Of a DNA stretch of 60,730 nucleotides, positions 35,254-60,730 are shown in pieces. The position numbers were made by a program, and so were the translations under genes. Position 1 is the first letter of the stretch; each line of letters begins with the position of its first letter. Under the pieces are notes generated by a model, which made no database searches, was not told where the DNA came from, and was given only the letters and a program-made list of their open reading frames with translations. Source of the stretch: Mesotaenium endlicherianum (Eukaryota); NCBI GenBank assembly GCA_009602735.1, contig WELA01003501.1:3787-64516 (forward strand), read 5' to 3'.

Positions 35254-35286
<33 letters not shown>

Positions 35287-36821: not shown

Positions 36822-36852
<31 letters not shown>

Positions 36853-38150
36853 GTGCACTCCATTGGAGCCGGTGCCAAGGCGGATGCTGATGCCAATGCT
36901 GGTGCTAGTGCTGATGCCAGTGCAAGTGCGGGTGCCGGTGCCGGGGCTGGGGCTGCAGGGGTGCTGGCGTTCTTCTCGGGCTTTGAGAAGCTGGCAGACA
37001 TGACCAGCATCGGCACTCTCTCCTTGATGGGGTCGGTACTACCCCCCTCTTCCCCCCCGGGCCCCCCCACCCTCGCCAACTTCTCTCCCCGTCTCGCGTC
37101 TCTTCTCTTCTTGCAGATGATGTGTGCCACTACTGGGCCAGAGGCTGTTGCCACGCTTTCCTTCTCGAAGGTGGTGGCCTCTGACACCCGTCTTGGGCGT
37201 GCCGTGGTGGTGGTGGGGGGCGGGGAACATGTGGTGTGCAGCCTGCTGTCCCTGGCCATGCTGTTCCGCCGCTACGCGCCGGGCCACAGTGCGTCCCTTC
37301 TCCTATTAGCTCTACCGATTGCTCCCGCACCTGCCTGTCCGTTCGCCTGCACTCGCCCGCGGGGTTGGTCGGCACGCTTTCCAGTTAAGGGAACGTCGTT
37401 GCTGACGGGGCTGCGGTGGGGGTTGGCGATGGGGGCGATGTGCAGAGCCTGTCCGCGAGCGGCACGGAGGCAGGCACCTGAAGCTGCCCTTCAAGCCCGA
37501 CCCCTTTGGCGCCATGCTGGAGGATGCGGGAAAGTGCTGGCTGCTGCTCTCGTACCTCTTCGTCATCTGCGGCTCCTCCATCGGTATGCTGCTGCTCCTT
37601 CCTCCTGCTCCTCCTCCTCCTCCTCCTCCTCCTCCTCCTCCTCCTCCACTGTGAACCATTTCAGCATCGGCTTGATGAGTCCTCTCTCGCTGAGTTAGTG
37701 CGTATGTATGTGCGTGTGCGTGCGTGTGCTCGGCACGGGCTGATGGCGTGGCGGCGGGCGGGCGGGCGGGGGGGCACAGGCTTTGCCGTGTACTGGAACG
37801 AGTCCTCGCACTGGGAGGGCCTCGCCGTCTTTGCGGCGCTCTGGTTCGCCGGCACGCTGGCGCTGTGGCGCACGCTGCCCCTCTGCTACGTGCCCGAGAG
37901 GTGGTGCATTTTCCCGCGGTGCCTGCCGTGGGTGCCCTCGCTGGGCGTGCTCTGTTCCATCGTGCTCATCGGCGGGCTGGGCGACAAGGGCACAGACCCG
38001 TACGAGCGGCTGGCCATCGCGTACGCCATCGGCACCGGCGTGTACCTGCTCTACGGCGTGCACGCCAACTACTGGTACAAGGTCGTGCGCGAGGCCCCCG
38101 GAGAGGAGGCGCACTTGCTGCCCAACAGGAACGTGGGCGATGTCGAGTGA
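33107..38150 (+). CDS. Cationic amino acid transporter (CAT/SLC7 family, APC superfamily), 14 exons, 614 aa: 33107-33250, 33414-33544, 33828-33908, 34133-34156, 34313-34351, 34664-34712, 34928-35102, 35519-35721, 36181-36450, 36676-36775, 36959-37031, 37242-37288, 37446-37583, 37780-38150
   Basis: All junctions are GT-AG with compatible phases; exons sum to 1845 nt = 615 codons including stop. Motifs occur in CAT order: TLTCLGVGNVVATGIF (TM1), GPSVILP…SEFAS, GGGFIYVLNTFG, DYVFGAAAVVRNFS, FFVFNGFDVIALGAEEVRD (TM6), SRILTALARERMIP, KTPVVA, LADMTSIGTL, PWVPSLGV, YLLYGVHA. Exon 1 is the least certain. Confidence 0.88.
34092..34116 (+). repeat. (TGGGG)n intronic repeat, potential G-quadruplex
   Basis: Five G4 runs just upstream of the 24-nt exon acceptor. 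Confidence 0.75.
35218..35350. repeat. Intronic (GT)n/(GC)n microsatellite
   Basis: Alternating purine-pyrimidine tracts in CAT intron 7. Confidence 0.85.
35774..35863 (+). repeat. Tandem duplication (~35-39 bp unit) in CAT intron 8
   Basis: GCCCGCCCGCCCCCGTCTCTGCCCCCTGGGTGGTT twice plus a partial unit. Confidence 0.85.
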
Positions 38151-39953
38151 GTTCTCGTCCTCCCCCCCCCCCTTTTTCCTCCCCGGGCGTCCAAGCGGCT
38201 GGCCTCCCTGTCTGCCCTCTCTGTGTCTGTTTGGGCTGGGCTGAGGGAGGCCCACCATCTCTGGGCTTCCTTCCTTCCTTCCCGGAGAAGTGGACATCAC
38301 ATGTGCGCGCTCTCAGATGGCCAGATTTGGGGGCTTGTTGATATCGACTACCTGTCGCGAATGTTGTGGATCATTGCCATGACATTTATTGCATGCTTGA
38401 GTTGCTTGAGTTGAATGTACATTGTTCGGAACAAGTGAGGGATGGGCAAGGGGAGGGCCTTACATGCGGCTGTGTGCTGTGCGTGTATTCTGCAGAATGG
38501 ATCGCATTCCGAGGGAAGGGATGGTTCACCGCGCTCATTTTGCAGAGCCAGGCAACATGGATGTCTAGGACTAGGAGGAGGGCTAAGAGAGGTGTACGCA
38601 GAATAGATCAAGGTTACGTTCAGACAAGGTAGGCATGCGGACGCTAGGTATATATTTATCCGAGAGGGCTGTGGAAGTACGCTGCACTGCCCTAGGTCAC
38701 GAGGCTTTTGCAGGACAATCTCCACCAAGGAGCCACACCTGCTGAAGGCCCCGTTCATTCTTCTTCCTGTAAGCGTACAGCCGTAAGGCTGTATTTAGTG
38801 TGGTTAGTGTAACATATTTAAGAAGTGGTGCGCAGGTGGCCTCCTTTGAGCCGAGGCCGGTAGGGCTGCCAGCAGCCAGTTGTGATTGTTGGGACACGTG
38901 GCCAGTATGTGAAACCCAAGATGGCTACATGTACATATGTCGTAAGACACTCGTTTCACTTTATCTCGGACTGGCAGACCCTACTGCGCTGCTATGGGCG
39001 GGCTGCAAGTAGATACGTCGCCAACCTAAACGCGACAGCACACATGTAACGACCTGACTGCAATAAGAGAGACTGCAATATTGTAGTCCAATCTGCTTGC
39101 CACCGTGAACTGTCGCCTCTGCACCATGCCTACATGCCACTCCTGTCCATCTGGATCGAAAGCAATAGCAGTAGCATACATCATGTTCAATAGTATGACA
39201 TTATTTGTGATCCACGATTTATTGACAAGCTTCAGGCAGTGGATTGGCAAGGCAAGCGATGGATGTCTTTTGTTGGTCAAAAAACGTACACGTATATGCT
39301 ATGATGAAGCTGGAGGCAAGCCAATCCGTGCGTGAAGGCAACTAAGTGCAAATGAGCGGAAGCCGAAAGACCAGCATGTTTCGACCAAGTTCATGAATGG
39401 CGACAGCAGCCACGATCATTGAGGCGAAGCATTTACGCACAAACCGTCACGAGGCATGCATGCAAGCTGAGTGACGCGACATAACATAAAACTGTCACGA
39501 GCGATGGTTACGAAGCGTGCATGCATGCAGCCCGACAGGCTGTCACTCAGTCACGGCACTTTTGAGAGGAAAGAGCACGCGTGGTGCCTAAGTCTTTCTT
39601 TGCGGGCATCACTGTCGGAGCTGCAAAGTCCGACATCGACTCTTCGATGAGCCCTGCTTCCAAAAGTTTAGCGCACTTTGCTTCTATTATATCCCGTTCC
39701 ACTTTAGGGACGCTTGAAAATAGGTTTTTGTAACGGTGAGCTCAATGGTCATCTGCGAAATAGTGCTATACTGAGATTCATACTGGCACGCGCAGAACAG
39801 TCCTTGTTCCTAGCTAATATCACTGTAAATTGGGTGGCCTCTTCTTCCGTTAACTGCGATCCTAGATTCCAAGTGGGGCGCGTGGAATCCAGGACTGAAG
39901 TATCAAAAGTTGAGACCGCTAATTGCTGAGTACCTCCTGCTGTACAACTCAAT

Positions 39954-41086
39954 GTGTCTCTAGGTCGAATTTGTGACCGGCTGAATGCGGCAGAAATTGT
40001 TGCTGCAAGAGCGAGAGGGACTGTTGAGGACACTACTCAGCGGGTGGATGCCACTGCTGCTGTTGCATTTGCTAGACTCCCACCTCAGAGTGTAGATCTG
40101 GGAGCATTATTTGTGCAAATGCAATTGCGAATGGCGAGCATGTATCAGTCCCAACAGGAGGACAAAAGAATCATTATGTCTTTGCCGCGGGACAGAGACC
40201 AACTAGGTTTTCAAACCATTGGTGGTGGTGGCAGAGGGCCAAGTAAGCCTAAGCCACAACTCCCCAGGACTATGATCCTGAGGGAAACAAAAGGTATTAC
40301 CTGATCAAGTTCCTCGCTGATGTCGAGCAGTGGCTGGAGAACTACCCAGAGCTGCAGGATTACAAGAAGGTTAGGCACACTGGTGCTCTACTGAAAGGTA
40401 GTGTAGCGGACTGGTGGCTTTATTGGAAGGGAGAGCGTAAGGCTCAGCAACTCGGTGACCCTACTTGGGTAGAGTTTGTCGAGAAACTGCATGAGAAATT
40501 TGATGTCATCAATCAGCAGGAGAAAGCTATCTATGCAATGATCTCCTTGACACTGAAGCAGACCACTTTAGTTGCTGAGTATGCTCAGAAGTTCCAGGAG
40601 AACATGATGAAGCCGCCAGACTTGCCAGAGCGTTATAGGATAGGATACTTTAGGTATGGCTTGAAATCCGAAGTCTTTGGTCATTTTGCGGAAAAGAAGT
40701 ATGAAAAATTGGCTGACTTGATCCAAGACGCTGATGCCTGGGATCAGCAGCAGTTCAATCACAAGCGCCAGAGTAATACTTTGGTGTCTAAGATTGTCAA
40801 AAAGCCTTACAGTTCCTACAATGCAATTGAAAGAGACCAGGCTGAGGATGATGAGGGTGGTGAGTACGAGTATGAGTATAATGCTATACAGTCTAGAGGG
40901 AGAGGTGGTTACTCTTGAGGTGGCTATGGAAGAGGTGGTGGTAGGACTAAGCCGAGACCAGCCTCAGCAAAGTCTGTTTGCTTCCATTGCCAGCAATTGG
41001 GCCACTTCAGAGAGCAGTGTCTAGTCAAGCACCTTCCAAAGGTCAAGAGAAAGAACCAACCTTTAAAAGACAGCAACAATCAATAA
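39954..41086 (+). pseudogene. gag: D3 gag (frameshifted/stopped) with CCHC knuckle
   Basis: LLKGSVADWW, LKQTTLVAEYAQKF, FRYGLK, and CFHCQQLGHFREQC at ~40979-41020. Confidence 0.82.
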
Positions 41087-44000
41087 TCCAGTCTACTGGC
41101 TGTGAGAATGCTAGAGATAGTAAGTCGTCACTAGCTGCTCTCGTAGCAGGTATTATGGGTCCTACTAAACTGGATTCACTATGCATGCCTGACAACCAGA
41201 TAGAGGAGACCATCAGCAATATAGACCTCCAGAGAGTGCACACTATGGATGATCTTGTTCCACCTGATGTCCGACATATCTTTGATAAGTCAGGAGAACA
41301 ATGCGAAAGTCAAGAAAAGACAGTCCCCCCTATCCTACTGCATTGCATGATAGCAGGTGGGAAGGTGAGGGCATTTGTTGACGGAGGGGCGTCTCATACT
41401 TTTATCCAAAAGGACTTATTTAAGCGGCTAAGGGTGCCTAATGTCATCTAAGGGAATAGAAAAATATTCCTTGGAGATGCCTCAAGTATCCCGGGAGGAA
41501 TTATAACCAAGTCTATTGAGGTCCAATTAGGTTCTAGCATTGCAGTTCTAAGTGGAACGCTTACATTTGAGGTACTCAACACTGGCTTTTATGATCTCGT
41601 GCTAGGCAGGTCCTGGCTTAACAGACATCAAGCTGAAGTGTGTTGGAGCAGAGGTACAGTTAAAATGAGAGGAGCCAGTGATGGGCACACTAACTTGGCA
41701 CCCACCAGTGCTCTTCCTCTTTTCCTGTATGGATGGCAAATGAAGGAAAAGAAGAGGCTTCCAAAAGGATGCAAATTGCTGAATGCAAAGGAGTTCATCG
41801 AAAGCTGGAACCAGAAGGAAGACAGAAAGTTTTGTCTGCTGCTAAGAGAGGTACCTCCTTGACTCAAAGAAGTGGTGGAGAAAAAGATAAGTTCTCCGGA
41901 GCACCCTACTGCTGCAAAAATTGTTGCTCAGTATACTGATGTTTTTAATATGCCTCCAGGACTACCCCCTAAGAGGGAATTAGATCACAAGATTGATTAA
42001 TTACCTGGGAGTCAGCCACCCTGGCAACGCACTTATGGCTTGTCTTACGTGGAGAGCGAAGAGTTGAAAACACAGATTGCAGAGCTTGAGGAAAATAGTT
42101 ATATATCCCCCAGTAAATCACCTTATGGCGCACCCATCCTATTTGTTAAGAAAAAGGATGGAAGTATGCGGATTTGCGTTGATTACAGAGCTCTTAACAC
42201 AATTACAGTAAAGAACAAGTATGCTTTACCCAAAATCTAGGACTTGCTTGATACCCTGTTTGGTGCCAAAGTATCTAGTAAGATAGATCTCAAGAGTAAT
42301 TATCATCACATCAGAATTGTTGAGGGAGATGAACACAAGACTGCCTTCCGCACACGTTATGGACACTATGACTTAACGTGATGCCATTCGGACTGACTAA
42401 TGCTCCTGCAACCTTCATGGGTGCTATGAATGACATTTTCAGACCTTACCTGGACAAGTTTGTGCAAGTCTTCCTGGATGATATTTTAATTTTCTCTAAA
42501 GATGAAGCTCAGCATGTTGAACACTTAAAGACAATCATAAACACTCCGAGAAGAAATCAGTTATATGCTAAAATGAACAAGTGTGATTTCTTTAAAGATA
42601 GTATTGAATTCTTAGGCCACGTTGTCAGCAAAGAAGGCATCTGTGTGGATCCTAAGAAAGTCCAGACCATAAAGGACTGGCCAGTACCACAGTCTGTCTT
42701 TGAAGTTAGATCCTTCTTTGGGTTGGCTAACCACTACAGGAGCTATGTTGAGAATTGTTCTACAAAGGCCAGTAAATTGACTGACCTTACTAAGAAAGAC
42801 ATAGGGTATGTGTGGGGGGAAGAGCAGCAGGCTGCCTTCCAGACCCTTAAAAATGCTCTTTGTTCTGCCCCAGTCCTAGCCGTGTATGACCCCAGCAAGC
42901 CTGTGTAGGTGATTACTGATGCTTCTGACTTTGCCATGGGTGCTATTTTGTTGCAGCCTACTGACAAATCCACAAAGGATGGTAAGGTACTGCAGGAGTG
43001 GCACCCTGTGCTGTATGAGTCTATGAAATTCAACCCAGCTGAGATTAATTATTCTCTGCATGATGAAGAGCTGCTTGCTATCATTCATGTGCTCACACAG
43101 TGGGGAGCATACTTACATGGTAAAGCTTTTAAGGTGATCACAGATCATCTAGCTCTGACTCACTTTCAGAAGAAGTCCAAGCTGTCGAGGAGGGAGAACC
43201 GCTGGAGCCAGATGCTGCAGTTCCAAGTCCAGATTGACTACAAACCAGGGAATTTGAATCCTGCTGATGCACTCTCTAGAAAACCTGACTTGCAAGAAAG
43301 GAACTTCAGTCAGCATGCTGTAGTTAAGTTCTTTGTGCACTCACTTCACTCAAGGTCAAAAAGTCCTTCCTTGAACAACTTAGAAAGGCCTACCTTTCTG
43401 ACCCAACATTTGAGCACAGTTCCACGAATGGTGTGTGTCCTGCTACTGCACTCGGGTATAGGCTTAAGGGAGGGGTTCGGGTGACTGAAACCGCTTCAGG
43501 CAGAATGAAGCTGGTCATTCCTAATAACTTGGAATTAAAGTCACTCTTATTGAGTCAGGCACATGACAGTTTATTGGGTGGGCATTTGGGGCAGGCCAAA
43601 ACTGTTGGCAAACTGGCAAAACATTATCATTGGGATGGGTTGCCTCGGGAGGTCTTGAAACATGTTAAGTCTTGTGATCAGTGCCAGAGAAATAAGCCTA
43701 GGCACACACCACCCGGGGGTCTTTTATAACCACTGCCCATATCAGCGAGACGCTGGGAAACAATATCTATGGACTGGGTGGTAACTCTACCAAGAACTGC
43801 CAATGGGCATGATTCGATACCGGTAGTCGTGGATAAATTGACAAAAATGGTCAATTTCATCCCCACAACTGTCAAAGTAACTGCACTCAAAATTGTGAGA
43901 CAATTCTACAACCATGTAGTATGCCAATATGGGCTACCCTCTAATATCATCTCAGACAAAGACTCAAAATTTACCTCTAAGTTTTGGAGAGCTTTAATGG

Positions 44001-44870
44001 GGCTAATGGGAGTCAAACAGCTGCTCAGCACAGCAAACCACCCTCAGACTGATGGGCAGACTAAAAGAACTAACCGAGTTCTGCAGGAGGTGCTGAGAGC
44101 ATATATTAACCAACAACAAGATAATTGGAATGACCTGTTGCCTCAAATTCAATTTGCGGTCAACAGTGCGGTGCACGCGTCAACGGGAAAGACCCCTTTT
44201 GTACAGAGTCTGGGTAGAGTCCCTAAGTCTCCTTTAGATGTGCTAGGGGAGTCTTTAACTCACTCTGAGGGGATTGACAATTCCGTGTCTCTCCAGTTAA
44301 CTCAGGTTTTTGCCAATACCTTGTCAGAAGTCCAGTGAAACCTACACACAGTCCAAGAAAATCAACAAAAATACGCAAATCAACACTGTCGAGAGCTGAC
44401 ATTTTCTAAGGGCGATTTGGTCAAACTGCATTCTCAACACCTGTACCTGCCTGGTGTGGTCAAGAAAGAGCTTGGTCCGATCTGGGTCGGTCCATACTCG
44501 GTGGTGCGCCGTGTCGGTCAGAATGCTTACAAACTGAACATGTCAGCGGAATACAAGGGTCACCCAGTCTTTAATGTCTCGTTCCTGGAACCGTACATCA
44601 AAGGTGACACACTGTTCATAGGTCGGTAACCTGTCCAACCGGGACCGGTGCCCGCTGTCAGAGATGGTGACCCTGAGGAATATGAGGTCGAGGACATTTC
44701 AGACGCTCGCTTTGTCCGTCGATCATCTAAATATGTCATGAAATATCTGGTCCGATGGAAGGGTTACGATGCCTCTGGGAATACTTGGGAGTTTAAGGAC
44801 CATTTGACCAATGCCAAAGGGGCGTTGGAACGGTTCCACCTTCGGGTGGTTGATTCACCTCCCGAACTGT
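41062..44870 (+). pseudogene. pol: D3 pol (PR, RT, RH, INT, chromodomain), many stops and frameshifts
   Basis: ORF fragments from 40978..41451 to 44648..44971 give the Gypsy domain order; chromodomain EYEVEDI…YLVRWKGY…NTWE. Confidence 0.93.
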
Positions 44871-45253
44871 CATTTCAGTTGACATGGGAAGGTGACAGGA
44901 GATCCTGTCTCCATTTAAGTTGGAGGGAAAAATACATGGCAATTAGTGTGCGACAAAGGGACAATTTCTGAATCCTAAATGTCAGCATAGTGACAGATGG
45001 GACAGCCTGGCCCACATCAAGCAACGTTGGCGGAATGAAAAAGGGACTCGCACAGCAATACATCACCTAACTCACCCTACACACATTCATGCGTTTATTT
45101 TTAATCGCACCGCAGCTACGTAAACTCCTAGCAATCACCCTGAAAGGTAAACGGGAACAATCTACCATAGTAATACAAACTTGCTTCCCTTCCTGCAACT
45201 CCTGTGACAAAGATGGAGATCCTACTAATTGGTGCCCTGGTTACATGTACAGG

Positions 45254-46920
45254 ATGGCTCCCACCACACAAAAGGAAGACTGAAAGCGCAAGGCAAAAGA
45301 AGCCAGGAGGACTATGGAGCAATACCAGAAAGAGCTGGCGGCGACGTCCCTCACCAGGAGAGAACAAGAAAGGGTCCGCAGACAACAAGAGGCGGCAGAA
45401 GAAGCACAGAGGAAGAAGGAGCAGGAAGCGGAAAACCTCAGCAAAGCTGAGGAGGAGAGACAGAAGAAACAACAAGAAGAAGCGGCGGCGGCAAAGGAGG
45501 AGAGAAGAAAAAAGGCTGAAGCTGATAGGCATAAGAGCTTGGCCACTTACAGATATACTGTGGTGGGTGGCCAAACCTTTGATAACCTGAAGGAAGCAAA
45601 ACTAGCAGCCCAGGAAATCAACAAGCTGGAACAGACAACACTTCTACAGAGGGAAGAAGCTGAAGCACTGGATAGGTACATTAAGACACACACTGGTGTG
45701 GTCCTTTACAAAGCTTATGCCAAGATGGTGGGCTATACAGCAGAGCAGGTCCGGTACCTTGCAGCTGAATCGGAGAACAAGCCAATTCCGCTATGGGGAA
45801 TAGTAGGAGATAAGAGACTCATCAGGATGGTGAGCATGCGGCCCAATAGCTTTAAGGATACGGTAATACACCTCACACTACTGCAAACTTACAATGAAGT
45901 TAAGAGGAGGAGCCAAGAGTACTTGGCCAAAGAAGAAGAACTCCAAATGTTCTCTCCCCACTGGTTCCCTTGTAAGCTGAAAAAGGCTGAGCATGGACCA
46001 CAGTACTACCAGCAACCCCCAGGCTGGAGGTGGATGACCATCACCAACAAAAAGCAGGAGTGTGACCGAGCCTAACCAAACGACTTCCACTATGGACTAG
46101 ACGGCTACCTCATCCTACTACCTCACATTGCCCCGTGGGACCCCAGGCTGAATGGCTGCCTGAGTGATATAAATGCTGAGACCAAAGAGCACAGGAGGAG
46201 GGGGAGAGACTACTTCTCTAAGGGGAAGCATGCCTTTGTCAAATGGGCGAAGAATGCAGGCCGGATAGATATCAGCAGGCTGAAGGCCAAGCATCCTCCA
46301 GCTCGTCCTAAGAAAGGGAGGTCAGTAGATTTCTCCATGTCTACCAGGAAGCAGGATGACTCGGTGGACGAGACTCCTACCCTCTCAGAGGAGGAAGATG
46401 AGGAGGATGAGGAAGAAGAGAAGCATCAGGATCTGGTACTCAGGAGACCCAGGGGCAGGCAAGAGCAGGGTTTCCTAAGGAGCCAAGATCAGGTGTATGG
46501 AATGTGACCCCGATCATGGAGGCAACAGTTCCCGCACTTGCTTCCCCAGCCCACCTGCCCAAGCAGGGGCAGAAGTTGATCTGACTGTATTTGGCAGCAG
46601 ACAAAGGCAAAATCCCCGAGAGGACAAGGGTGCCAGAAGAGGGACACGCGGGGTGGCCAGAGGTATGCCGGCCTCCCCCTTTGCTCACGAACATGTACTT
46701 CTTGCCAATGTATTTCAGCATCCTATTAGAATGCCTGCCTATGTGGGGATCAACACCCAGGTGGTTGAAGAGCAGGCTACAATCCTTTGTTCTCCTCAAG
46801 GTCCGACTTTAGAACAAACAGGGTTCTTTAAAAGGCCAGCTGACAGACCTACAGGGCTGTCCAAATCTAGGTCCAGATCTCAGTCTCCTGATCCTGAAGT
46901 CCCAGGGACCAACCCCCTAG
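45254..46920 (+). pseudogene. Family D ORF3, type 1, full-length but disrupted copy (~555 codons)
   Basis: ATG at 45254 (MAPTTQKED*KRKAKE…); ORF 45314..46075 is a charged coiled-coil followed by the conserved core; it continues past a stop at 46073 as HYGLDGYLIL.PHIAPWDPRL…; ORF 46497..47036 carries the C-terminus. Confidence 0.82.
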
Positions 46921-47661
46921 ACATCAAAACATCCTCCAGTCAAGCCTTGCTGGAGGTCTCTCTGTTTGCACCCCACAACGGCAGTGGACTGAGGGTAGAG
47001 GTGACACCTCCCATCACTAGTAATCCCCACGGCTAGGCAACAGTGTTGAAGCAAGAGGCAGGCGGTGGGGGGTTAGTCCTGTTAAGTTCCCTGACCCAAT
47101 ACTTCTGCAGTTTAATGTTGTCAAGTCGACAACAAGTTAAGTTGGAGGGATTGTAATGAATCAGTATATTGATAGGTATAATATTCATTTGAATATAATA
47201 GTTAACTAAGTTCAGCCTGCTGAACTTTTATTAATATACAATCTGCTGGACATAATGAAAATATCAGTTTAATGACTCAGTCGGAAGCAGCAGGCTGAAG
47301 TCAACTTAAGTCAGCTTGCTGACACATTCTTTGACAGCCAGCTGACTTCCGTATTCGGTAGCAGCGAACAGCCTAGATATGCATTTAAGTGTGATATGCT
47401 AGATGAATGGCCAGATGACATCCTTAGGATGGATGGCGATTCGGGATGATGGGAGATGGCGGTGGATTTGGTTAACCGAGGTCCTACCAACGTGGTTAAC
47501 TCCCGGGTAGGCGGTGCCATCGCACTTGCCGTTGAACAGTAAACTCATTCCATGTACATATGCTAGGTATTGCTCTCGAGTTCGGCATTTGGAAACGAGG
47601 CCAACTCTCTGGTACAGCTTACTAAGAGGTATTTGAATCCAAAGCGAGAAGCCATTGATAT

Positions 47662-48405
47662 TAAAAGGGGCAGAGTGCCCTAGTGGAAGCGTAGTGACTC
47701 ACGAGGAAAAGAACTAGTCGCAATCATACTAAAGAGTGCAGCAGCATATCACTAAGGAAGCTTGGGAAAATTACTTGACATTTTGACTGGCAAGAGATTG
47801 CTCACAAATAAACTAGGGTGAAAGGCCTTGTCATTACAAACCCGTAGAAATTTACAGATGTGAGAACTGATAAGAAACAAAGAAGTTATACCTATTTATA
47901 ACTTTCTGCCTAAGTGCTCCTCTCTAGGAGGAAGCTACGGAATTTCTTAAGTGTGCGTCAAATCGTCCCTTCCAGAACATTCGTGAGAAGGCCAGATCAA
48001 TCTCATCTGACGTGTTGGGTCGAATTGACGTCCACATACATGCATCGACATTACTAGAATATTCTATCTTAGAAGCGCTAGGCTAAATCGAAACTTCTAG
48101 GTCAATCGACCTAGTCGGCACTCCGCGTCAGCCGAACTTACGTGAAGGTTCGAGTTCATTCTAACGGGCCAGATCGCTCGACGCTGTCGGTCAATCCGAC
48201 GGTCGCGCTCACCGCAATTTAAGGACAGTCGTCAACCAACCTCAAAACTAATTAAACTTCGAAAATCCATAACTCTCTCAATACTTGACCAAATTCGATG
48301 AACTTTTTATCAAAATTACCACAAAAATGGACTCTATACGAATATACAATCAAAACATACTTTCATGAAACTCAAAAATGCACTTTATAAACCTATGACC
48401 TTACA
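47662..48405 (-). mobile_element. Family B solo LTR inserted in the D3 LTR
   Basis: Single B LTR flanked by perfect TSD GATAT (47657-47661 / 48406-48410). Confidence 0.95.
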
Positions 48406-48618
48406 GATATGCACTGTCTTCTAGCCTTGCTTATGTATGAGTTTACTGATTGCATTACTCATGCTAGTTTACTTACATTGACTTGCGGGTATTGTCCACT
48501 GCTAGTAAGTTGTCTTTTGTTGTTTTATCAAGTAACAAAAAATACCATAGAGATTACTTGCTGATATAAAGATCTTCATTAATTGTTAATCGCTTATTTG
48601 GTAAGTCGATTCATTTCA

Positions 48619-49633
48619 GCTGTCCAGATCCAGGTCCAAATCTCAATCCCCTGATTTTGGGGCTCCAAACACATCCACGTAGATCTTAAAACCATCCTCC
48701 AGTCAAGCCTTGCTGGGGGTCTCTCTGTTTGCACTCTACAACGGAAGTTGATTGTGGGTGGAGGTGATAATTCATCATCACTAGTGATCCCCACAGCTAG
48801 GCAACAGTGATGAAGCAAGAGGCAGGCGATGGGAAGATCAGTATTGTAAACCTTCTTAACACATAGCTTTACAGTTTAGTGTTGTCGAGGCGACAACAAT
48901 TTAAGTTGGAGGGATTGTAATGAATCAGTATATTAGTAAATATGATATTCAATTAAATATAATAGCTGATCAAGTTCAACCCGCTGAACTTTAGTTGATA
49001 TTCGATATGCTGGACTTGTAAGGATAATCAGTATAATGACTCAGCCGAGAGCAGCAGGCTGAAGTCAATTTAGGTGAGCTCGCTGACACATTCTTTGACA
49101 GCTAGCTGACTTCTTACTCGGTAGCAGCGAACTACCTAGTCATGCAATTAAGTGTGATATGCTAGATGAATGGCCAAATGACAACTTTAGGATAGATGGT
49201 GATTTGGGATGATCGGAGATGGCTGTGAATTTGGTTAACCAAGTTCCTACCAACGTGGTTAACTCCCGGGTAGGCGGTGCCATCGCACTTGCCGTTGAAC
49301 AGTAAACTCATTCCGTATACATAGGCTAGATATTGCTTCAAGTTCGGCATTCGAAAACAAGGCCAACGCTCTTGTATAGCTCACTAAGAGGTATTTGAAT
49401 ACAAGGCGAGAAGCCATTGTTGCTAACTATTTTCTGACTTTGCTTATGTATAAGTTTACCGATTGCATGATTGATGCTTGTTTACTTGCGTTTGATTGGT
49501 GAATTATTGTTCACTGCTAGTGTATTGTCTTTTGCTGTTAAATCAATTAACGAAAGGTACCATAAAGACTGCTTGCTGATATGAAGATCTTTTATTAATT
49601 GACAATCGCCTATTGGTAAGTTGATTCATTTCA
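48619..49633 (+). mobile_element. D' subfamily 3' end, second copy (LTR 48916-49633)
   Basis: Same junctions and sequence as 27351-28366. Confidence 0.87.
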
Positions 49634-49787
49634 AAACGGGCTGAAACAAGAGTACTATTGGAGGAATATGGACAAGGCCATTGAGGAGTGGATCAAGAGT
49701 TGCGATGCGTGCCAGCGGAACAAGACACCAGATCAAAGGAAAGGAGGTACATTGCAGCCTTTGTCTATTTCATAATATCATTGGAAG
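49634..49787 (+). pseudogene. pol: Family B integrase fragment interrupted by D4
   Basis: LKQEYYWRNMDKAIEEWIKSCDACQRNKT; matches 28367-28530. Confidence 0.85.
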
Positions 49788-50585
49788 TGAAATGAATCGA
49801 CTTACCAAATAGGCGATTAACAATTAATAAAGATCTTTATATCAGCGAGTAATCTTTATGGTAATTTTCGTTAACTGGTTAAACGGCAAAGGACAACCCA
49901 CTAGCAGTGAATAGTACTCGTAAGTCAAATGCGAGTAAACTAGCATCAATAATGCAATCAGTAAACTCATACATAAGCAAGGTTAGAAGATAGTGCGTAT
50001 CAATGGCTTCTCGCCTTGGATTCAGATCTCTCTCAGTAAGCTGTACAAGAGAGTTGGCCTCGTTTCCGAATGCCGAACTCGAGAGCAATGTCTAGCGTAT
50101 GTACATGGAATGAGTTTACTGTTCAACGGTCAGTGCGATGGCACCGCCTACCCGGGAGTTAACCACGTTGGTAGGACCTCGGTTAACCAAATCCACCGCC
50201 ATCTCCCATCATCCCGAATAGCCATCCATCATAGGGATGTCATCTGGCCATTCATCTAGCATACCACACTTAGATGCATATCAAGGCAGTTCGCTGCTAC
50301 CGAGTACGGAAGTCAGCTGGCTGTCAAAGAATGTGTCAGCAAGCTGACTTAAGGTGACCTCAGCCTGCCACTTCCGGCCCAGTCATTAAACTGATATTAA
50401 GTATAAAGTCCAGCAAACTGATTGTTAACTAAAATTCAGCAGGTTGAACTTATTTAACTATATTATTTAAATGAATATTATATCTACCAGTATACTGATT
50501 CATTACAATCCCTCCAACTTATCATGTTGTCGCCTCGACAACACTATAACAGCGTGCCGTCCCTCTTATCCCCAGCCTGCTGCCC

Positions 50586-53500
50586 TTAGGAGGGAGATGT
50601 CCCTGAGGCCCTATGCTCAGTGGAGCCAGACCTCCTCCTGTCTTGGGGTCTTTTGAAGCCTGTCAGAGAAGGGGGTTCCGTGTAAGGACCCGGCAAAGAA
50701 CGCAGTAACTGGGCTGTTTCCTCCTGCACAGTCTGAAATTGAAGGGAGGCAGCCTTCTCCTGTGCAGCCCTCAAACTGACAGGTACGTATACCGGCATCC
50801 CGGAAGGATGTTGCATGACATGAGCCAAGGGTACATGCCCTCTCTGCGAGGGAGATGCTGGCAGGCCTCTGGCTATCTCCCGAGCAGCCCTCCTGTCTGC
50901 CCTGTCTGACTGGGTCTCCTTGCCTGGAGATGGGCTCTGTCCTCTGGCAGTCCCCAGCCAAGTGATATCCTCCTCTTGAGCGAGTTGCGGCGGGGCCCAC
51001 CCCGTCTTCTCCCTTACAGGGGATGTGGCAGGTGTCAGGATCACGGCGGGGCTAGTGTCCTCCTCCTCGCCTTCCTCCTCGTCTTCCTCCGACTCCTCCT
51101 CCTCGCCGTCCCCGGGTTCCTCTGAGACTTCTGGGGTCTCCTCTGTCCGCTGCTCCAGCTCTTCCCGAGAAAAAGAATATCCTACTGACCTTCCCCTTTT
51201 GGGTGCTGGTGGGGGCTGCTGAGTCCGGACCGCATAGAGGTCCTTTTCCCCCTGCTTACTTGCCCATTTGGCATAAGCGTGCTTCCCTTTGGAGAATGAC
51301 TCTCGGGCCCTGCTTCTGTCCCCCTGCATCTCTTGGCTCATGCAGTCTCTGACTCCATCCAATCTTGGGTCCCAAGCCGCAATGTGAGGGGGCAATACTA
51401 TGTTCCCCTTTAGGTCTGTCAGGAAATCCTCATCCGTCGCCCTGTCATTCTGCTGGTCCCTCATGTTGATGGTCATCCACCGCCAATCAGTGGGCTTTTG
51501 GAAGAAGGCAGCGTCTGTCTTTTTGAGAGTACAAGGGTACCAGTGCCCTGCAAAGTCCAGCTAACTGGTTTCTCTGGCCAAGAATTCCCAGCTCCTCCTC
51601 TCCACCTCATTGTACATGGCCTTTTACCTATTGTGGGGTGTTGAGTCCTTGAAGCTGTCCGCGTCCATGGGGATCATCCTGATGACCCTATGAAATGAAT
51701 CTTGCTTATTCAAGATTAATATATTTCATTTAAATATAAAAGATCAGAGATAGGTGGAAGCGTGTGAAATCAGGGAGCGATCTTCGCCCTTATAATGAAT
51801 TCTGTTTACTCATCTATAGCCCTTGACTCACTTATCGTAGTGTGCCATAATTGCACACGAATACAAGGCACAAGAAAGAGGCGAGCTTGAGGACTAGAGC
51901 TTCTCCTTTAGAAACTCCTAACCTCTTGCCTACCAGGCATACAAGCATGTGTAAGCACATTCACAACATCAGGGGACTGAATAGCAAAGGTGCTCTCATT
52001 CAGATGACCATAAAGTAGCTCAAACTCATCCCACTGACTTAGGTGCAAAAACCATGGAATCTGTCCGCTGTGTGACCCCAAAATTTTTAGAGAGCATAAC
52101 TCTGTTAATACTACTCCAACTTGAGCAAACTTAACGGCAACGGATGCATCTTGACGAGACCTTTCCGAAAAGTCCTAGTTCGCTCCAAATGAAGCGCAAA
52201 CGAATTAGCCATGGCAATTTCCGTGAAGGCTGGTCATTAGAACGAACCCAAAAAGTGCACACATCACTTGCAAGTAGAAACCCGATTGTAAAGCCTGCTG
52301 TCCAGAACGAGGGACCACGAGATCCCAGCCTGCTATGTACCTAGTGACCACCTGGTTGACCACGGCGCAAGGTGCGCCGTTTCGTGGGAAACCCGTTAAG
52401 TTGGGACCCACGGATCTAGGTATAACGACCATATTAATTGGTCGGTTGACTGAAGTCCTAACTGTTCAGTTGACTGACGACGGCTCCGCCTACCCAGGAG
52501 TTAACCACACTGGTAGGACATCGGTTTACCGAATCTCAGTCGACCTCCCGACTTTCAGTATACTTCGGTCACATGTGCCAATCCACAAACAACAATCTAA
52601 ATGAATATGTCTATCCTCTGCGTACTGAAGCTAAGTATATTGACTAATATCAAGCGAGCTTACTATATGTCAACCTACTGATATTTTATCCTATATATAA
52701 CTGATATATAAATCTCAGCAAATCACACTATGATATAAAAGTCATCCTGCTGACCTTTTCAACATAGTCAGCAGACTACACTTTGGTACCAAAGTCATCC
52801 TGCTGACCTTTTTGACAAAGTAAGTAAACTCGCATTACATCGACATACATTCATTTAGATGAACTCGCACATGTGAGTATATAGACATAATACTTATATA
52901 GTGTTATATTTATATATGCAATTAATTAAATAAATAATGAACTGATTCATTACAATCTCCCCAACTTAAATTGTTGTCGCCTCGACAACACTCAGCATAT
53001 GATACTTTTATTTAATAATACACTTCAGTCAACTAGGTGAAGCAAAGCAAGCAAACAAAACATGAGCGTGACATATTCACCTACCCAGTGCAAGTAAAAA
53101 TCAATCACAACAAATTGTCATGCAAGCAACCATCTGACTTCACAGTCATTAACTGAAGACATGCATGGACTTACCCCTACTCACAATAGTCCTTCCGGTT
53201 GAAAGACATAATAGAGCACCTCACACCATGCAAACCACACCCAAATCAAACAGCCTCCTTTCGAGGTCAAATAATGAAAGAATGTTATTAAAGCTCAGCG
53301 TACTGAACTAAGCCTTTTCTCCTTCTCTTGGTCTTCAACTGCTGCTGTGCTCCCACCTTGAAAGCTCCTCACAAGCAATTTCTTGTGACTTAGGTACCTG
53401 CTCAAAATTCAGCGTACTGAAGGAAAAGAGAGACCAACTGGTTTGATGGCATTGAATGCCCTCACAAGAAGAGTAACATCAGGTTAATGAGCCGATGAAA

Positions 53501-56500
53501 ATTTTACATTTTAACCACATTTTCAGAACACTCTAAGTTCAAAGAAACATATGGTTTTGAGCAATATGCTGGTCACCTCAAGCAGTTCCCTGATGTGTCA
53601 TGCATCATTGCTACCCAATCCAACTTATGGCAATGTACTTACTCAATTAGTACGTACACTTGCTCCAACAGTGTACCGCAACTCACAGTTTACACCAGTC
53701 AGTCACTGATGCTCCTGATATTAATGCAGTACATACATAGGACGTGGCAGTGTATGACTCAGTTAGTACATACACTTGCTGCTGAGTATGCAGGTAAGCA
53801 CAGCTTACTGAATACTCCTAATACACATCCCATCTCCCTCTCTCCAACTTAAATAGCTGTCGACTGGACAACTTTAACCACATAAGCACACCAAAAAGTG
53901 CAAACACCCAAGTAAGCAAAAAAAGAAAGAAAGTGCCCCCCTCCCAAAAAAAAAAAAATAGTCCATTTTTCAAAATTAGATCAATGACCGGAGTGGCTTA
54001 GGGAAGAGTGTACTGCCATTCAAACCCTCTCACCACAAAGCTCTATCCATGAATAACCTAAACTCAAGCCAGCGTATTACATCCCTCCATTCGAAAGTGT
54101 AGATAGCTTGCTATGAGATGAAGACAACCGGCCCTGTTAGCAAGTTTATCCATACCAAAAAGTAGCGCAGTTAGCTGACTCTACCAATGCTTACATACAA
54201 TGACTCATACTGGTCATTCCTAGCAAGACATACACCAAAATGACAACCACCCAATGGTGAGAGTCAACAATCAAACAGAAGAGGGACCAGAAACAACCAA
54301 CTATCATAGTTCTGATGTTTCAAGATACTCCCTCCTTCAGACCGTACTGCCTGAAGTTGCCCAGAGGACAGGTGGGGAAGCGTCACGTGGCAGCGTCCAG
54401 CATGCCAACTCCTCGGCCTCTCTCGACCTGTATGCACCATCGCTTCACACTCTGCTTGCTGGTCTCAGTCTGTTGAACAGACAACAAACAAGTGTGTAAG
54501 TTGCCTTCAATGAGCTTAAGCTACGCGTGGCAAACACCACACCCTAGCTGCATCAGTCTACTCAAGGTCTGATGACTCCATCTTACATAGTTCCCGGGAG
54601 GGTAAGGCAAACATTGGGATCACAAAGACAACCAATGACAATGGACAAACGCAGTATAGCTCAAAACCCAGTTCCTCTCTAAAGGCACATACATGGCACC
54701 TATTGTAATTGCAGCAAGCACCTAGCCAATGACAACAGCGTGCATAGATCCCTGGTAAGACTTTCGCACTGTAACCCCAAGCTAGCAAGAAGAATGTTTG
54801 TGCATCGGATTGAACAAGATCATTCAAGCCATGCATTGCGAGAACGTCTATAATGTCGATGGTCTCTTCTGTCTTTACTTAGGTGTGCATAGTGAATCTA
54901 TTACAGCAGGGCCCATTTTACACCTGCTCTACGGTATGCTAATGGCGATCCACTACCTCTAGCACCCGGGATGCAAATTCCATGCACCTGACGCATATAC
55001 AAATGCATCTTGCATGCTACCTAGCATGCGCCTCTAGCGAGCTCAGTTAGCTTCGAGGCCGGCAGAAACTTAGCACACTGCTAATATGCCCAGATCGTCC
55101 CCATGACGAAGACACAAACCTCCTTACACTTGACCGAGTGTACAGGTGGCATCCAAAAACAAATAGCCAACTGGACCTAAGGCAAGTAGTCAAACCCCCT
55201 CTAGTATCCACGTTGACTTTCCATACGTCAGTCAACACACCGTACAGACCTAAGTCTCGATATGCTCATCTTATCTGATTATCTCGCTAGCTATGACGAG
55301 CCACAATCCCACAGTAAGACATGTCACGCACCAAGCATGGCAACACCAAGAGCTCGTTCAGCTCAAGCACTCAAAGTACTCATTGATCGCGGCTGCTCTC
55401 GGACACTTAACCTTTAATAAGTCATGCGAACTAAAGAGAGTTAAAGGAAAGTCCTTGCGTTCATAAACCCAAGCCCTTAAACCCTTTAACCACATTAGGT
55501 CAAATAATCCAGCAGACTGACTTAACCTAAGTCAGCAATCACATAAGATCCGCATCCAAAAACCTCTGCACACTGACTAGACTTATCTTAAGCTTAAACC
55601 CCAAGCTCCTACGATCCATCAAGTATCACCAAAGCACCGTCTCACACATAGCATTCAAGCACAAGGCACGTACCCTAAACCTTCCAGCCCACGTCAATGT
55701 GGCAAACGAGAGGAGCACACAATGTTACAGCCATGGTTGGGAATAAAGGGTATCTGTAGGATGCCATTGTTGCTGTGGAAGCCTCTTCTCATAGAAGTTG
55801 CAGCATGCTGAAGCTTGTGGACGACGTAGTGCACTTGGACCGTGGTGGCGAAAACCTGTCGTAATCCATACTTGGAAACTTAAGTTAGTAAATCATGTGT
55901 GCACGCACTGTCTCAATTGCTCAACACATGCAGCCATACCCAAGCTCCCTCAACCGAACTGCCACACAACTAATGAGAGAGGTACGTCTCTTGCAAAGCA
56001 ACAAGCTTAAACTTAAAGGGATAGCACAACAGACCAACAAGTCCTCTAGCACCGTTGGAGTGCACACCCCTCTCTATACTAGCCGTGGATTGCATATAAC
56101 AACACACAATGACTATGATCAAGTGAGGTAAATGAGTCATATCCAGCTTGCTATGATGCAACTCCCTTGAGGCTGCCCTTGATGCTTGCAGACACCTCTT
56201 CCATCAAGCCTCCACTTCAGGCTTCTCGTTGCGTGTAACTGTACACAAGAGGCTAGGAAAGTCAAGTTAGTATGCCGCATAGTACACTGAGCCAAGAGAC
56301 ACACTAGGTGAGCAAGTGGAAGGATCCTGGACAGGATGTGCAATGCTCTACATCATACACTTCCCAAGCTCCACCTAGACTCATCATACCACACAAGTAA
56401 GCCTCACACACTTACCTCATGAGACAAAGAAGACAAGCACGGACATTCAAGAAAGGACTTAGCTCCGATACCACTGAAATGAATCTTGCTTATTCAAGAT

Positions 56501-58158
56501 TAATATATTTCATTTAAATATAAAAGATCAGAGATAGATGGAAGCGTGTGAAATCAGCGAGCGATCTTTGCCCTTATAATGAATTCCGTTTACTCATCTA
56601 TAGCCCTTGACTCACTTATCGTAGTGTGCCATGATTGCACACGAATACAAGGCACAAGAAAGAGGCGAGCTTGAGGACTAGAGCTTCTCCTTTAGAAACT
56701 CCTGACCTCTTGCCTACCAGGCATACAAGCATGTGTAAGCACATTCACAACATCAGGGGACTGAATAGCAAAGGCGCTCTCATTCAGATGACCATAAAGT
56801 AGCTAAAGTCCTAGTTCGCTCCAAATGAAGCGCAAACGAATCAGCCATGGCAATTTCCGTGAAGGCTGGTCATTAGAACGAACCCAAAAAGTGCACACAT
56901 CACTTGCAAGTAGAAATCCGATTGTAAAGCCTGCTGTCCAGAATGAGGGACCACGACATCCCAGCCTGCTATGTACCTAGTGACCACTTGGTTGACCACG
57001 GCGCAAGGTGCGCCGTTTCGTGGGAAACCCGTTAAGTTGGGACCCACGGATCTAGGTATAACGACCATATTAATTGGTCGGTTGACAGAAGTCCTAACTG
57101 TTCAGTTGACTGACGACGGCTCCGCCTACCCAGGAGTTAACCACACTGGTAGGACATCGGTTTACCGAATCTCAGTTGACCTCCCGACTTTCAGTATACT
57201 TCGGTCACATGTGCCAATCCACAAACAACAATCTAAATGAATATGTCTATCCTCTGCGTACTGAAGCTAAGTATATTGACTAATATCAAGGGAGCTTACT
57301 ATATGTCAACCTACTGATATTTTATCCTATATATAACTGATATATAAATCTCAGCAAACTACACTATGATATAAAAGTCATTTTGCTGACCTTTTCAACA
57401 AAGTCAGCAGACTACACTATGGTACAAAAGTCATCCTGCTGACCTTTTTGACAAAGTAAGTAAACTCGCATTACATCGACATACATTCATTTAGATGAAC
57501 TCGCACATGTGAGTATATAGACATAATACTTATATAGTGTTATATTTATATATGCAATTAATTAAATAAATAATGAACTGATTCATTACACCCTATCTGC
57601 CCCCCAGATACCAGGAATCGAGACAGCTCCTGCTTCGTTCACTTGGACCATTGCCTTGGCCTCTCCGATGGTATATCCTACCATCCTGGCGTAATCGTGG
57701 TAGAGGAGAAGCCCTGTGCTGACCTCTATATACTTGTCAAAGTTTTCGGATGTCTCCTCTTCCTTCTGGAGGATTTCCTTATGCGACTCACTGCGATTTC
57801 TCTGGGCATACTTAAAGGCCTCCTCCAGTAGATCAAAGCCCTTGCCCAGCACCGTGTAGCGGTAGCTGCTGATTCTTCTCTGTTCTTCTTCTTCAGCCTG
57901 CTGCTTCCGCTTCTCCTCAGCTTGCCTCTCCTCCTCTGCTTTCTTTGCCTACTCTGCCGCTTTTCTGTCCATTTCTTCCTGCCTCAGTCTGGCCTGTTCC
58001 TCCTCCTCCTTCTTCTTCTGTGCCTCCCGCTGTTGTTGGAGTCGTTGTGATTCCCGAGCGGTGATGGAAGATGATTCGATGTCTCCACGGAATTGCAAGT
58101 ATTCTGCATGTGCCTCTTCCGCCCTTCTCTTCCTCTTGAGTTCCGACTTTTGAGTCAT
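50586..58158 (-). pseudogene. Family D ORF3, type 2 (58158-57596 joined to 51690-50586 = 556 codons), split by element E, three in-frame stops
   Basis: Removing E and one TSD restores the frame (…IWGADR-VIRMIPMDADSFKD…YNEVERRSWEFLARE…HWYPCTL…WRWMT…PPHIAAWDPRL…FSKGKHAYAKWA…GHVPLAHVMQHPSGMPVYV). Confidence 0.85.
51691..57590 (-). mobile_element. Family E non-autonomous LTR element (LARD-like), complete, 5.9 kb
   Basis: LTRs 51691-52954 and 56475-57590 near-identical except a 148-bp indel; perfect TSD CCCTA (51686-51690 / 57591-57595); PBS 56458-56473; PPT 52955-52970; 3.5-kb interior with no recognisable gag/pol. Confidence 0.93.
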
Positions 58159-58482
58159 CCTGCTCAATCATAAACACAATGCAGTTAGTGAAGTCATGAT
58201 ATTTTGCCGCTACTGAGTGCCCTTGATGAAGAGGGACGCGATCGGGAGAGTTCCTAGAGTGGAATACCTGGTGTGAGCGAATATAAGGAAAAATTGTGTT
58301 GGAGAGCAAGTGAGTGTGAGCGCAGGTTGAGTGGGTAATATGGTGATCAGAGACTACCACTCCCTCCAACTTAAATTCAAAGGTGGGCTGCCTGTCACAA
58401 CTGTCACTAACTGTCACATCTCCCTCCAACTCATATAGAAATAGGACCTCCTGTCACCTTCGCGTGTCAACGGAAATGACTG

Positions 58483-60730
58483 TTAGGAAGGTGCCCCAGC
58501 CGCCCGAAGGTGGAACCGTTTCAACGCCCCTTTGGCATGCGTCAGCTGATCTTTAAATTCCCAAGTGTCCCCAGAGGCATCGTAACCCTTCCATCGGATG
58601 AGGTACTTCATTACATATTTAGACGATCGACGGACCGAGCGAGCGTCTAAAATCTCATCGACCTCATATTCCTCAGGGTCGCCGTCACGGACAGCGGGGA
58701 CCGGTCCCGGTTGGACAGGTAACCGACCTGTGAACAGTGTATCACCTTTGATGTACGGTTCCAGGTAGGAGACATTAAAGACGGGGTGACCCTTGTAGTC
58801 TGCTGACATGTTTAGTTTGTAAGCATTCTGACCGACACGACGGACCACCGAATATGGACCGACCCAGACAGGGCCAAGCTTTTTCTTGACCACACCAGGG
58901 AGGTACAGGTGCTGAGAATGCAGTTTGACTAAATCCCCCTTGGAAAATGTCAGTTCCCGACGGTGTTGATTAGCGTATTTTTGTTGGTTTTCTTGGGCCG
59001 TGTGCAAGTTTCGTTGGACTTCTGACAGGATGTCAGCAAACTCCTGAGTTAACTGGAGGGAGACCGGGTTGTCAATCCCTTCAGGGTGGGTTAAAGATTC
59101 CCCTAGGACATCAAGAGGAGACTTAGGGACTCTACCCAGGCTGAGTTCAAAAGGAGTTTTGCCCGTTGACGCGTGCACCGCACTGTTGACCGCAAACTGA
59201 ATTTGAGGCAACAGGTCATCCCAATTATCTTGTTTTTGGTTAATATATGCTCTCAGCACCTCCTGCAGAACTCGGTTAGTTCTTTCAGTCTGCCCATCAG
59301 TCTGAGGGTGGTTTGCTGTGCTGAGCAGCTGTTTGACTCCCATTAACCCCATTAAAGCTCTCCAGAACTTAGAGGTGAATTTTGAGTCCCTGTCTGAGAT
59401 GATATTAGAAGGGAGCCCATGTTGGCATACTACATGGTTGTAAAACTGTCTCGCTGTTTCGAGTGCAGTCACTTTGACAGTTGTGGGGATGAAAATGACC
59501 ATTTTTGTCAGTTTATCCACGACTACCAATATTGAATCATGCCCATTGGCAGTTCGTGGTAGTGTGACCACCCAGTCCATACATATAATTTCCCAGCGTC
59601 CAGCTGGGATGGGCAGTGGTTGCAAGAGACCTTCGGGTGGTGTGTGCCAAGACTTATTTCTCTGACACTGGTCACAGGACTTGACATATTTCAAGACCTC
59701 CCGGGGTCACCCCTCCCAATGATAATGTTTTGCCAATTTGCCAACAGTTTTGGCCTGCCCCAAATGTCCATTCAGGAGACTGTCATGCGCTTGACTCAAA
59801 AGGAGAGACCTTATTTCCAAGTTATTAGGAATGACCAGCTTCAGCCTGCCTGAAGTGGTTTCAGTCACCCAGACCCCTCCCTTAAGCTTATACCCGAGTG
59901 CAGTAGCACGACACACACCAGTAGTGGGGCTGGGCTCAAATGTTGGGTCAGAAAGGTAGGCTTTCCTAAGTTGTTCTAGGAAGGACTTTTTCACCTTTAG
60001 TGAAGTGAGTGCACACAGGACTTCATCTACAGCATGCTGACTAAAGTTTCTTTCTTGCAAGTCAGGTCTTCTAGAGAGTGCATCACCAGGATTCAACTTC
60101 CCTGGTTTGTTGTCGATCTCGACTTGGAACTGCTCCAGCATCTGGCTCCAGCGGTTCTCCCTCCTCGACAGCTTGGACTTCTTCTGAAAGTGGGTCAGAG
60201 CTAGATGATCTGTAATCACCTTAAAAGCTTTACCATGTAAGTATGCTCTCCACTGTTTGAGTACATGAATGATAGCTAGCAGCTCTTTATCATGCACTGA
60301 GTAATTAATCTCCGCTGGATTAAATTTCATAGACTCATACAACACAGGATGCCACTCCTGCCGTACCTTACCATCCTTTGTGGTTTTGTCAGCAGGCTGC
60401 AACAAAACAGCACCCATGGCAAAGTCAGAGGCATCAGTAACCACCTGCACCGGTTTGCTGGGGTCATACACGGCTAGCACTGGGGCAGAACAAAGGGCAT
60501 CTTTAAGGGTCTGGAAGGCAGNNNNNNNNNNNNNNNCTGCTCCTCCCCCCACACATACCCGATGTCTTTCTTAGTAAGGTCAGTCAGTTTACTGGCCTTT
60601 GTGGAATAATTNNNNNNNNNNNNNNNNNNNNNNNNNNNNNNGTAGCCAACCCGAGGAAGGATCTAACTTCAGAGACAGATTGTGGTACAGGCCAGTCCCT
60701 TATGGTCTGGACTTTCTTAGGATCCACACT
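58483..60730 (-). pseudogene. pol: D4 pol 3' part (RT end, RNase H, integrase, chromodomain); one frameshift near 59700 and N gaps
   Basis: TDASDFAMGA; HDSLLNGH…CDQC; MDWVV…SDRDSKF…ERTN; GPY; EYEVDEIL…YLIRWKGY…DTWE. Confidence 0.94.

Follow-up and report, generated by a model that had tools for sequence, protein, structure and literature searches.

The env gene of Drosophila gypsy is made from a spliced RNA. Expression from a spliced RNA is likewise described for retroviral env and for the third open reading frame (ORF) of barley Bagy-2 (PMC7264820). Proteins without envelope character are also described as using this route: CERV of Caenorhabditis elegans Cer1 is presented as a non-envelope accessory protein, translated from a spliced message, that is nuclear and exports unspliced genomic RNA (PMC10309623), and the non-env ORF3s of bdelloid rotifers are presented as accessory proteins from spliced messages (PMC5408684). 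Among chromoviruses, the REXdb table gives extra ORFs for Tekay alone and lists none for Chlamyvir, Tcn1, Galadriel, Reina, or CRM; a 3′ sense extra ORF occurs in 18% of 782 Tekay elements, and no extra ORFs are listed for 1500 Tcn1, 44 Chlamyvir, and 270 Galadriel elements (PMC6317226). The passages of that survey on chromodomains describe the aromatic-cage type as typical of Tcn1, Chlamyvir, and Galadriel and, in plants, as limited to non-seed lineages. In sunflower, the 5′ aORF of Tekay is described as coiled, largely disordered, and predicted to be nuclear, in a study whose main text does not mention splicing (PMC11728184). What the extra ORFs of plant-lineage LTR retrotransposons do is an open question, and few of them have a known expression route.

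We analyzed a window of 60,730 nucleotides (nt) from Mesotaenium endlicherianum that contains two copies, D3 and D4, of an LTR retrotransposon family (family D), each with a sense ORF of about 555 codons (ORF3) between pol and the 3′ LTR. The pol features below were called with Pfam.

24548-25615, minus strand: third ORF3 fragment, of the D3 type, open for 355 codons, 5′-truncated
39928-44970, plus strand: D3 gag-pol (capsid, zinc knuckle, protease, RT, RNase H, integrase, chromodomain), decayed, 5′-truncated at about 39928
44918-44928, plus strand: D3 internal polypurine tract (PPT), after a short hairpin, resembling the terminal PPT
45254-46920, plus strand: D3 ORF3, with premature stops and frameshifts in its 3′ third
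47140-47151, plus strand: D3 terminal PPT
47152-48618, plus strand: D3 3′ LTR, in pieces 47152-47661 and 48406-48618
49788-50507, minus strand: D4 3′ LTR, TGTAATGAATC...GATTCATTTCA
50508-50519, minus strand: D4 terminal PPT
50586-51690, minus strand: D4 ORF3, 3′ part: conserved W/P-rich globular core, basic motif, acidic run, P/R-rich tail
51691-57590, minus strand: LTR element E, nested inside D4 ORF3, target-site duplication TAGGG
57591-58158, minus strand: D4 ORF3, 5′ part: charged coiled-coil region, then the start of a globular region; one premature stop
58361-58431, minus strand: D4 internal PPT copies (58431-58421 and 58371-58361), directly behind pol
58483-60730, minus strand: 3′ part of D4 pol (RNase H, integrase, SH3, chromodomain), continuing past the window end

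The Pfam domain order Gag-PR-RT-RNase H-integrase along D3 (40253-44338), a chromodomain at the integrase C terminus (PF00385, E 3.2e-9 in D4 58483-59706) with the cage residues Y...W..Y visible by eye in both copies, and LTRs with TG...CA ends and a PPT in front mark D3 and D4, on these sequence features, as decayed copies of a chromodomain-bearing Ty3/gypsy family. Behind pol of the D elements lie a hairpin and the internal PPT; a spacer of about 230-290 nt separates these from ORF3, which is followed by another hairpin-PPT unit and by the 3′ LTR, interrupted in D3 by the LTR of another family at 47664-48405. Because D3 is 5′-truncated, beginning abruptly at about 39928 next to DNA at single-copy depth, and D4 runs off the window, no 5′ LTR, primer-binding site (PBS), or leader of family D lies in the window; the stretch 39045-39779, considered as a D3 5′ LTR, was dropped, having no match to the D LTR and single-copy depth. 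A single-depth contig of 3417 nt (run X1) matches 38998-39927 for 930 nt and then departs from the window, which may mean that D3 at about 39928 is a polymorphic insertion or was assembled differently. Summed contig depth is about 4-7e5 in pol and 1.4-3.5e5 in D3-type ORF3, whereas the flank has about 100-200; since contig depth is no copy number, we read family D only as very abundant. A composite made of an ORF3 tail, PPT, LTR, second ORF3 tail, PPT, LTR, and a pol fragment of another family occurs twice in the window (25793-28530 and 46320-49787) at about 92% identity.

Over the 500 nt leading up to the internal PPT, D3 and D4 are 87.8% identical, and at this PPT their identity stops: from there to the predicted branch point the spacers are 44.7% identical, within the range of shuffled sequences (mean 43.5%, maximum 47.3%). 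The sequence-only reading had called the neighborhood of the acceptor not alignable, which is correct for the spacer and incorrect for pol up to the internal PPT, as well as for ORF3, where D3 and D4 are 56.6% identical with a shuffled maximum of 54.5. That identity falls from 88% to random exactly at this PPT points to an exchange of cassettes or to a second site of plus-strand priming. No match of the D spacer to the LTRs of the window extends beyond PPT words, so an origin of the spacer as a relic LTR is unsupported. Element E, whose LTRs (57590-56475 and 52954-51691) are about 98% alike, has a hairpin-plus-PPT copy of its own at 53849 (minus strand), about 880 nt ahead of its terminal PPT.

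Directly before the ORF3 start codon, both D copies carry a putative branch point and 3′ splice acceptor, at the positions originally given for them, as we confirmed by re-reading both strands (a slash marks the predicted splice boundary throughout).

58184-58190, minus strand: D4 branch-point motif CACTAAC
58160-58162, minus strand: D4 3′ splice acceptor CAG (tandem GAGCAG), then G-ATG, with the ATG at 58158-58156
45223-45229, plus strand: D3 branch-point motif TACTAAT, also covered by genomic contigs
45250-45252, plus strand: D3 acceptor CAG, then G-ATG, with the ATG at 45254, also covered by genomic contigs

The gap from branch motif to CAG is 21 nt in D4 and 20 nt in D3, and ACTAAY, this spacing, and CAG/G-ATG are kept in both copies among spacers at shuffle-level identity; between branch and CAG the identity is 40.9% (43.1% when shuffled), and the 35-nt block taken whole, at 56.8%, is inside the shuffle range (maximum 62.5%). 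In a scan of the window, the strict pattern ACTAAY-N15-30-CAGGATG, which was picked post hoc, occurs twice against 0.1 expected. Strict branch-plus-CAG precedes only 2 of the 2144 ATGs on both strands, and both are ORF3 starts; a loose version precedes 19. YACTAAY-N15-30-CAG with no ATG required shows no enrichment in the window (4 against 5.0 expected).

In genomic contigs, the canonical form proved to be the rule for the D3 type. Position 45229 reads C in 254,956 of 255,662 of contig depth (99.7%; 41 contigs), which makes TACTAAC the norm of the D3-type family, and 45249 reads G in 94% of the depth, giving a host-like GCAG; the usual D3-type form is thus TACTAAC...GCAG/GATG. Neither TACTAA nor CAGGATG has a variant row among the 40 of 42 rows listed, and the denser variant rows upstream of the D3 acceptor are partly an effect of the lower depth there. 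Since the motif is kept across cassettes whose spacers are random with respect to each other, and since its canonical form is the family norm, we consider it probable from the sequence that the acceptor is a functional 3′ splice site.

A resemblance to the acceptors of the host CAT gene had also been proposed. CTRAY...RCAG is indeed common to both, whereas the spacing differs, being 29-37 nt in the host and 20-21 nt in family D, and this shorter distance from branch to CAG speaks against splicing that removes gag-pol. The host set comprises six sites chosen by motif scan, of which only the one ending at 37780 is confirmed in RNA; it served as positive control.

37736-37780, plus strand: host CAT-gene acceptor GGCTGAT-N32-CAG, seen in RNA

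At this junction the upstream exon appears as loose ends in 112 reads of run X16 and in 12 reads of X19, placed by the aligner to the exact base, which also sets the strand convention. The gene itself, a GC-rich amino-acid-permease (CAT-like) gene at about 33500-38400 (plus strand), is expressed and spliced in its 3′ part; microsatellites fill its introns, which end in CTRAY-N29-37-RCAG without a pyrimidine tract. A homology search with one exon of this gene scored none of 280 candidates. Together with the Met-type PBS assigned to neighboring elements and the cage-type chromodomain of family D, the gene suggests a host of the green lineage outside the seed plants.

The four ORF3 fragments fall into two types with 40-46% protein identity; the two parts of D4 ORF3, split by element E, sum to 556 codons, and the 3′ part has two premature stops. 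Third codon positions take 48 of the 71 differences between two D3-type copies, and between the D3 and D4 types, 148 codons compared position by position show 64/68/48% identity. Judged by these patterns, ORF3 is under coding constraint and therefore needs some route to translation. As read from the sequence, the protein opens with a charged segment resembling a coiled coil, continues with a globular core, a basic motif, and an acidic run, and closes with a P/R-rich tail. A membrane helix was looked for in all four fragments, covering both types, and the highest 19-residue Kyte-Doolittle mean was 0.59-0.83; the N termini examined for a signal peptide are hydrophilic (9-residue maxima of -1.3 and -0.53), and each fragment has zero or one N-glycosylation word. 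A Pfam scan of ORF3 returned no family above the cut-off, and a PDB search (best E 0.065) no homology to viral fusion glycoproteins. Word-indexed searches for homologs yielded none among 7989 and 49 candidates, which had lengths of about 195-716 aa only; an Atlas search with the N-terminal core gave no usable match, and a metagenome scan for the PPT-LTR pattern gave 0 matches. Two hits were rejected: the one HMMER match among 1.84 billion representatives (E 5e-5) was to a tandem-repeat bacterial protein (probability 1.4%), and the one of 91 candidate stretches matched in a metagenome scan for the protein was, by eye, a chance short word in a bacterial beta-lactamase-like frame. A single-sequence AlphaFold model of the core had a pLDDT of 39; the sole part above 70 is a hairpin-plus-helix segment at 45542-45610 (plus strand), YRYTV.G..FD.L.EA in both types. 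Lacking a signal peptide, a membrane helix, and a detected homolog, ORF3 is not an Env, and the label "env-style" that had been attached to it can describe the expression route but not the protein. We predict instead a soluble, probably nuclear accessory protein. By analogy, a Rev/CERV-like or anti-silencing role may be guessed.

How would such a protein be expressed? Ahead of the ORF3 ATG, the spacer holds eight ATGs in D3 and four in D4, and the ORF3 frame is closed upstream by two and five stops, respectively, so that some processing is needed to translate ORF3; these ATGs and stops argue against read-through or simple scanning. The following sites in the window are candidates for splicing to, or near, the acceptor.

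49805, minus strand: TTG/GTAAGT in the D4 3′ LTR
48601, plus strand: TTG/GTAAGT near the end of the D3 3′ LTR
45144-45152, plus strand: donor-like AAG/GTAAAC in the D3 spacer, 106 nt before the acceptor, also covered by contigs
58262-58270, minus strand: donor-like CAG/GTATTC in the D4 spacer, 108 nt before the acceptor
45067-45115, plus strand: second acceptor-like site, CTAAC...GCAG, in the D3 spacer

TTG/GTAAGT is present at all seven D LTR ends, 14-18 nt before the end, and is the only invariant GTRWG word in the five full D LTRs (chance of invariance 0.095, not significant). Element E, whose PBS, like that of neighboring elements, we take to be of the Met type, has GAG/GTAAGT at 56415 (minus strand), some 60 nt past the LTR end and PBS, and after it two TACTAAC...CAG acceptors (56272-56239 and 55890-55856, minus strand), so that a leader intron in E is possible by sequence; according to PMC1142308, none upstream of gag had been reported as of 2005.

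We propose that the spliceosome would use the branch point and the CAG directly before the ORF3 ATG, and that the first exon of the ORF3 RNA would probably come from the 5′ LTR or leader. Joining at CAG/G would remove gag-pol together with the four to eight upstream spacer ATGs, and the ORF3 ATG, which starts after the first base of the exon, would become the first or nearly the first AUG. As donor, TTG/GTAAGT near the end of the LTR is one possibility, and a site in the leader, comparable to the GAG/GTAAGT behind the PBS of the related element E, is another; with a donor in U5 the PBS would be lost too, leaving a spliced RNA unable to prime reverse transcription. We regard this removal of gag-pol from an RNA begun in the 5′ LTR or leader as the likeliest route, with about an even chance of being the right one. 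The sequence-only reading had reached the same spliced subgenomic mRNA and is supported in part: its acceptor is supported by sequence, and its removal of gag-pol has two observations against it, namely the lack of any read at the junction and the donor-like AG/GTA at 106/108 nt upstream, which would give a short 5′-UTR intron.

RNA from five runs with the same species label was read in part (about 24% of X19-X21, 6% of X13, and 13% of X16), and the test at the ORF3 start covered the D3 type only. Fourteen reads from three runs map to 45110-45400, 12 in sense (seven from X19, five from X20) and two in antisense (both from X21 and both crossing the D3 CAG). All 12 sense reads sit at or past 45260, and none enters the predicted intron. 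In the proposed check for junction reads at 45253, no sense read begins there (0/12), and none crosses the AG into the intron (0/12). From unspliced RNA, about 3-6 reads would be expected in 45220-45259 (P about 0.002-0.18, a range set by alignability and by whether reads or fragments are counted). The four leftmost sense reads start within 45260-45279, which is 8 or more bases into the exon; for at least two of them the aligned part covers 85 of 100 bases at most. Among the rows listed, there are no RNA loose ends or joints at the ORF3 acceptor. Over 45074-45405 the RNA depth is 0 in X13 and 0.11 in X16, and family D is weakly transcribed in these runs. The reads neither show nor exclude an ORF3 splice junction. 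Elsewhere in D3, antisense RNA covers the 3′ part of integrase (43746-45073) in two stranded runs, at a depth of up to 10-11 against less than 1 in sense; it carries letters that are rare in DNA (713 of 735,511 at 44050) and probably comes from one or a few divergent loci. Molecule ends cluster in the D LTR at 47585-47603 (plus strand; 5/17 and 5/18 in two stranded runs), possibly near a transcription start.

The acceptor could be real and yet close only a short 5′-UTR intron of about 107 nt, with ORF3 driven by its own promoter in or near the spacer behind the internal PPT; or the RNA could be spliced twice, with this acceptor closing its second intron. The AAG/GTAAAC of D3 and the CAG/GTATTC of D4, at 106 and 108 nt upstream of the AG, would supply the donor (an 11-nt window contains AGGTA by chance with a probability of about 0.012), and the accessory gene of maize Grande is reportedly driven by a promoter of its own. 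Contig depth follows an exon-intron-exon pattern, with 50-72k at 45120-45149, 2-23k at 45160-45219, and more than 220k from 45220; the trough is dense in variant rows, although it may partly stem from D3 mismatches that cut alignments. The additional CTAAC...GCAG of D3 also counts in favor of this arrangement. A pyrimidine tract precedes the D4 site, which could therefore be an acceptor matching the upstream acceptor of D3 and not its donor. RNA depth at 45110-45146, where the short upstream exon would lie, is 0 in all three runs, and the D3 spacer is without a TATA-like word. We judge this arrangement unlikely, although it is the most serious competitor of gag-pol removal.

Slightly less probable in our estimate is that the motif is a relic, having come along as an acceptor when the gene was captured or serving as a cis-element in some other role, or that it stands by coincidence next to a conserved start codon, with ORF3 unspliced or hardly expressed. 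The missing junction reads, the motif class at no more than its expected frequency, and the 35-nt block inside the shuffle range are all compatible with this, as are TACTAAC/TACTAAT words that element E has in repeats after its internal PPT. A relic should, however, decay along with the spacer, which is at random identity, whereas TACTAAC is nearly fixed in genomic depth, and the coding constraint on ORF3 demands a translation route. Very improbable, finally, is a Pol-ORF3 fusion, made by stop read-through or by splicing from AAG/GTGACA at the end of pol: the two ORFs share a frame in D4 (with a gap of 324 nt) and in D3, and AAG/GTGACA is present in both, but the upstream stops counted above lie in that very frame, and, as read from the sequence, the D4 pol stop precedes AAG/GTGACA and the join in D3 would shift the frame. 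The fusion is thereby largely excluded, and splicing from the 5′ LTR or leader, with loss of gag-pol, stays the explanation that we favor.

Set beside the described systems, family D shares with Bagy-2, with other plant env-like ORFs, and with retroviral and gypsy env a sense ORF between pol and the 3′ LTR. Those systems are not chromoviruses, whereas ORF3 of family D follows an integrase with a chromodomain and a PPT present in two copies; membrane helices occur in retroviral Env and in some of the plant env-like ORFs, whereas ORF3 has none. Tekay is, like family D, a chromovirus with an extra ORF, but it is confined to seed plants, and the chromodomain of family D is, by eye, of the cage type. 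The reference survey lists no extra ORFs for chromoviruses of the family D type (PMC6317226). Cer1 CERV and the bdelloid ORF3s resemble the route proposed here in being non-envelope proteins of LTR retrotransposons obtained via splicing; their hosts are animals, and our homolog searches with ORF3 of family D turned up no sequence link to them. The TRP28 ORFs (PF04195) of Retand, Grande, and RIRE2 are, like ORF3, conserved accessory ORFs between pol and the 3′ LTR; they are described as antisense and as belonging to non-chromovirus Tat elements (PMC11963269), whereas ORF3 is in sense to gag-pol in D3 and D4. An Atlas feature search with the ORF3 core returned two Transposase_28 clusters at 0.86-0.87, below 0.9 and on 95 of 256 features, and PF04195 is absent from the hmmscan of ORF3 at E up to 10, so that a link to Transposase_28/TRP28 is a lead only. 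Among the literature listings and papers examined, none described a spliced sense ORF3 in a chromovirus of the cage type.

That a third ORF can be expressed by splicing is already established; what would be new here is the chromovirus setting, the orphan and soluble product, and the cassette that two PPT copies delimit. In family D, very abundant as it is, a canonical branch point and acceptor are preserved ahead of an ORF3 that is an orphan and lacks membrane features. As a speculation that we think doubtful in its entirety, a lineage of cage chromoviruses may have acquired a spliced gene for a soluble nuclear accessory protein, a new protein family that would act as a Rev/CERV-like RNA-export factor or as an anti-silencing factor, on an exchangeable cassette between PPTs, which would leave nearly identical gag-pol regions next to deeply diverged ORF3 alleles. 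The sharp drop in identity at the internal PPT suggests that accessory genes may be swapped as modules. If the splicing proposed here is true, family D would divide its RNA into genomic and subgenomic forms as retroviruses do, in the absence of an envelope, which would point to a regulatory cargo.
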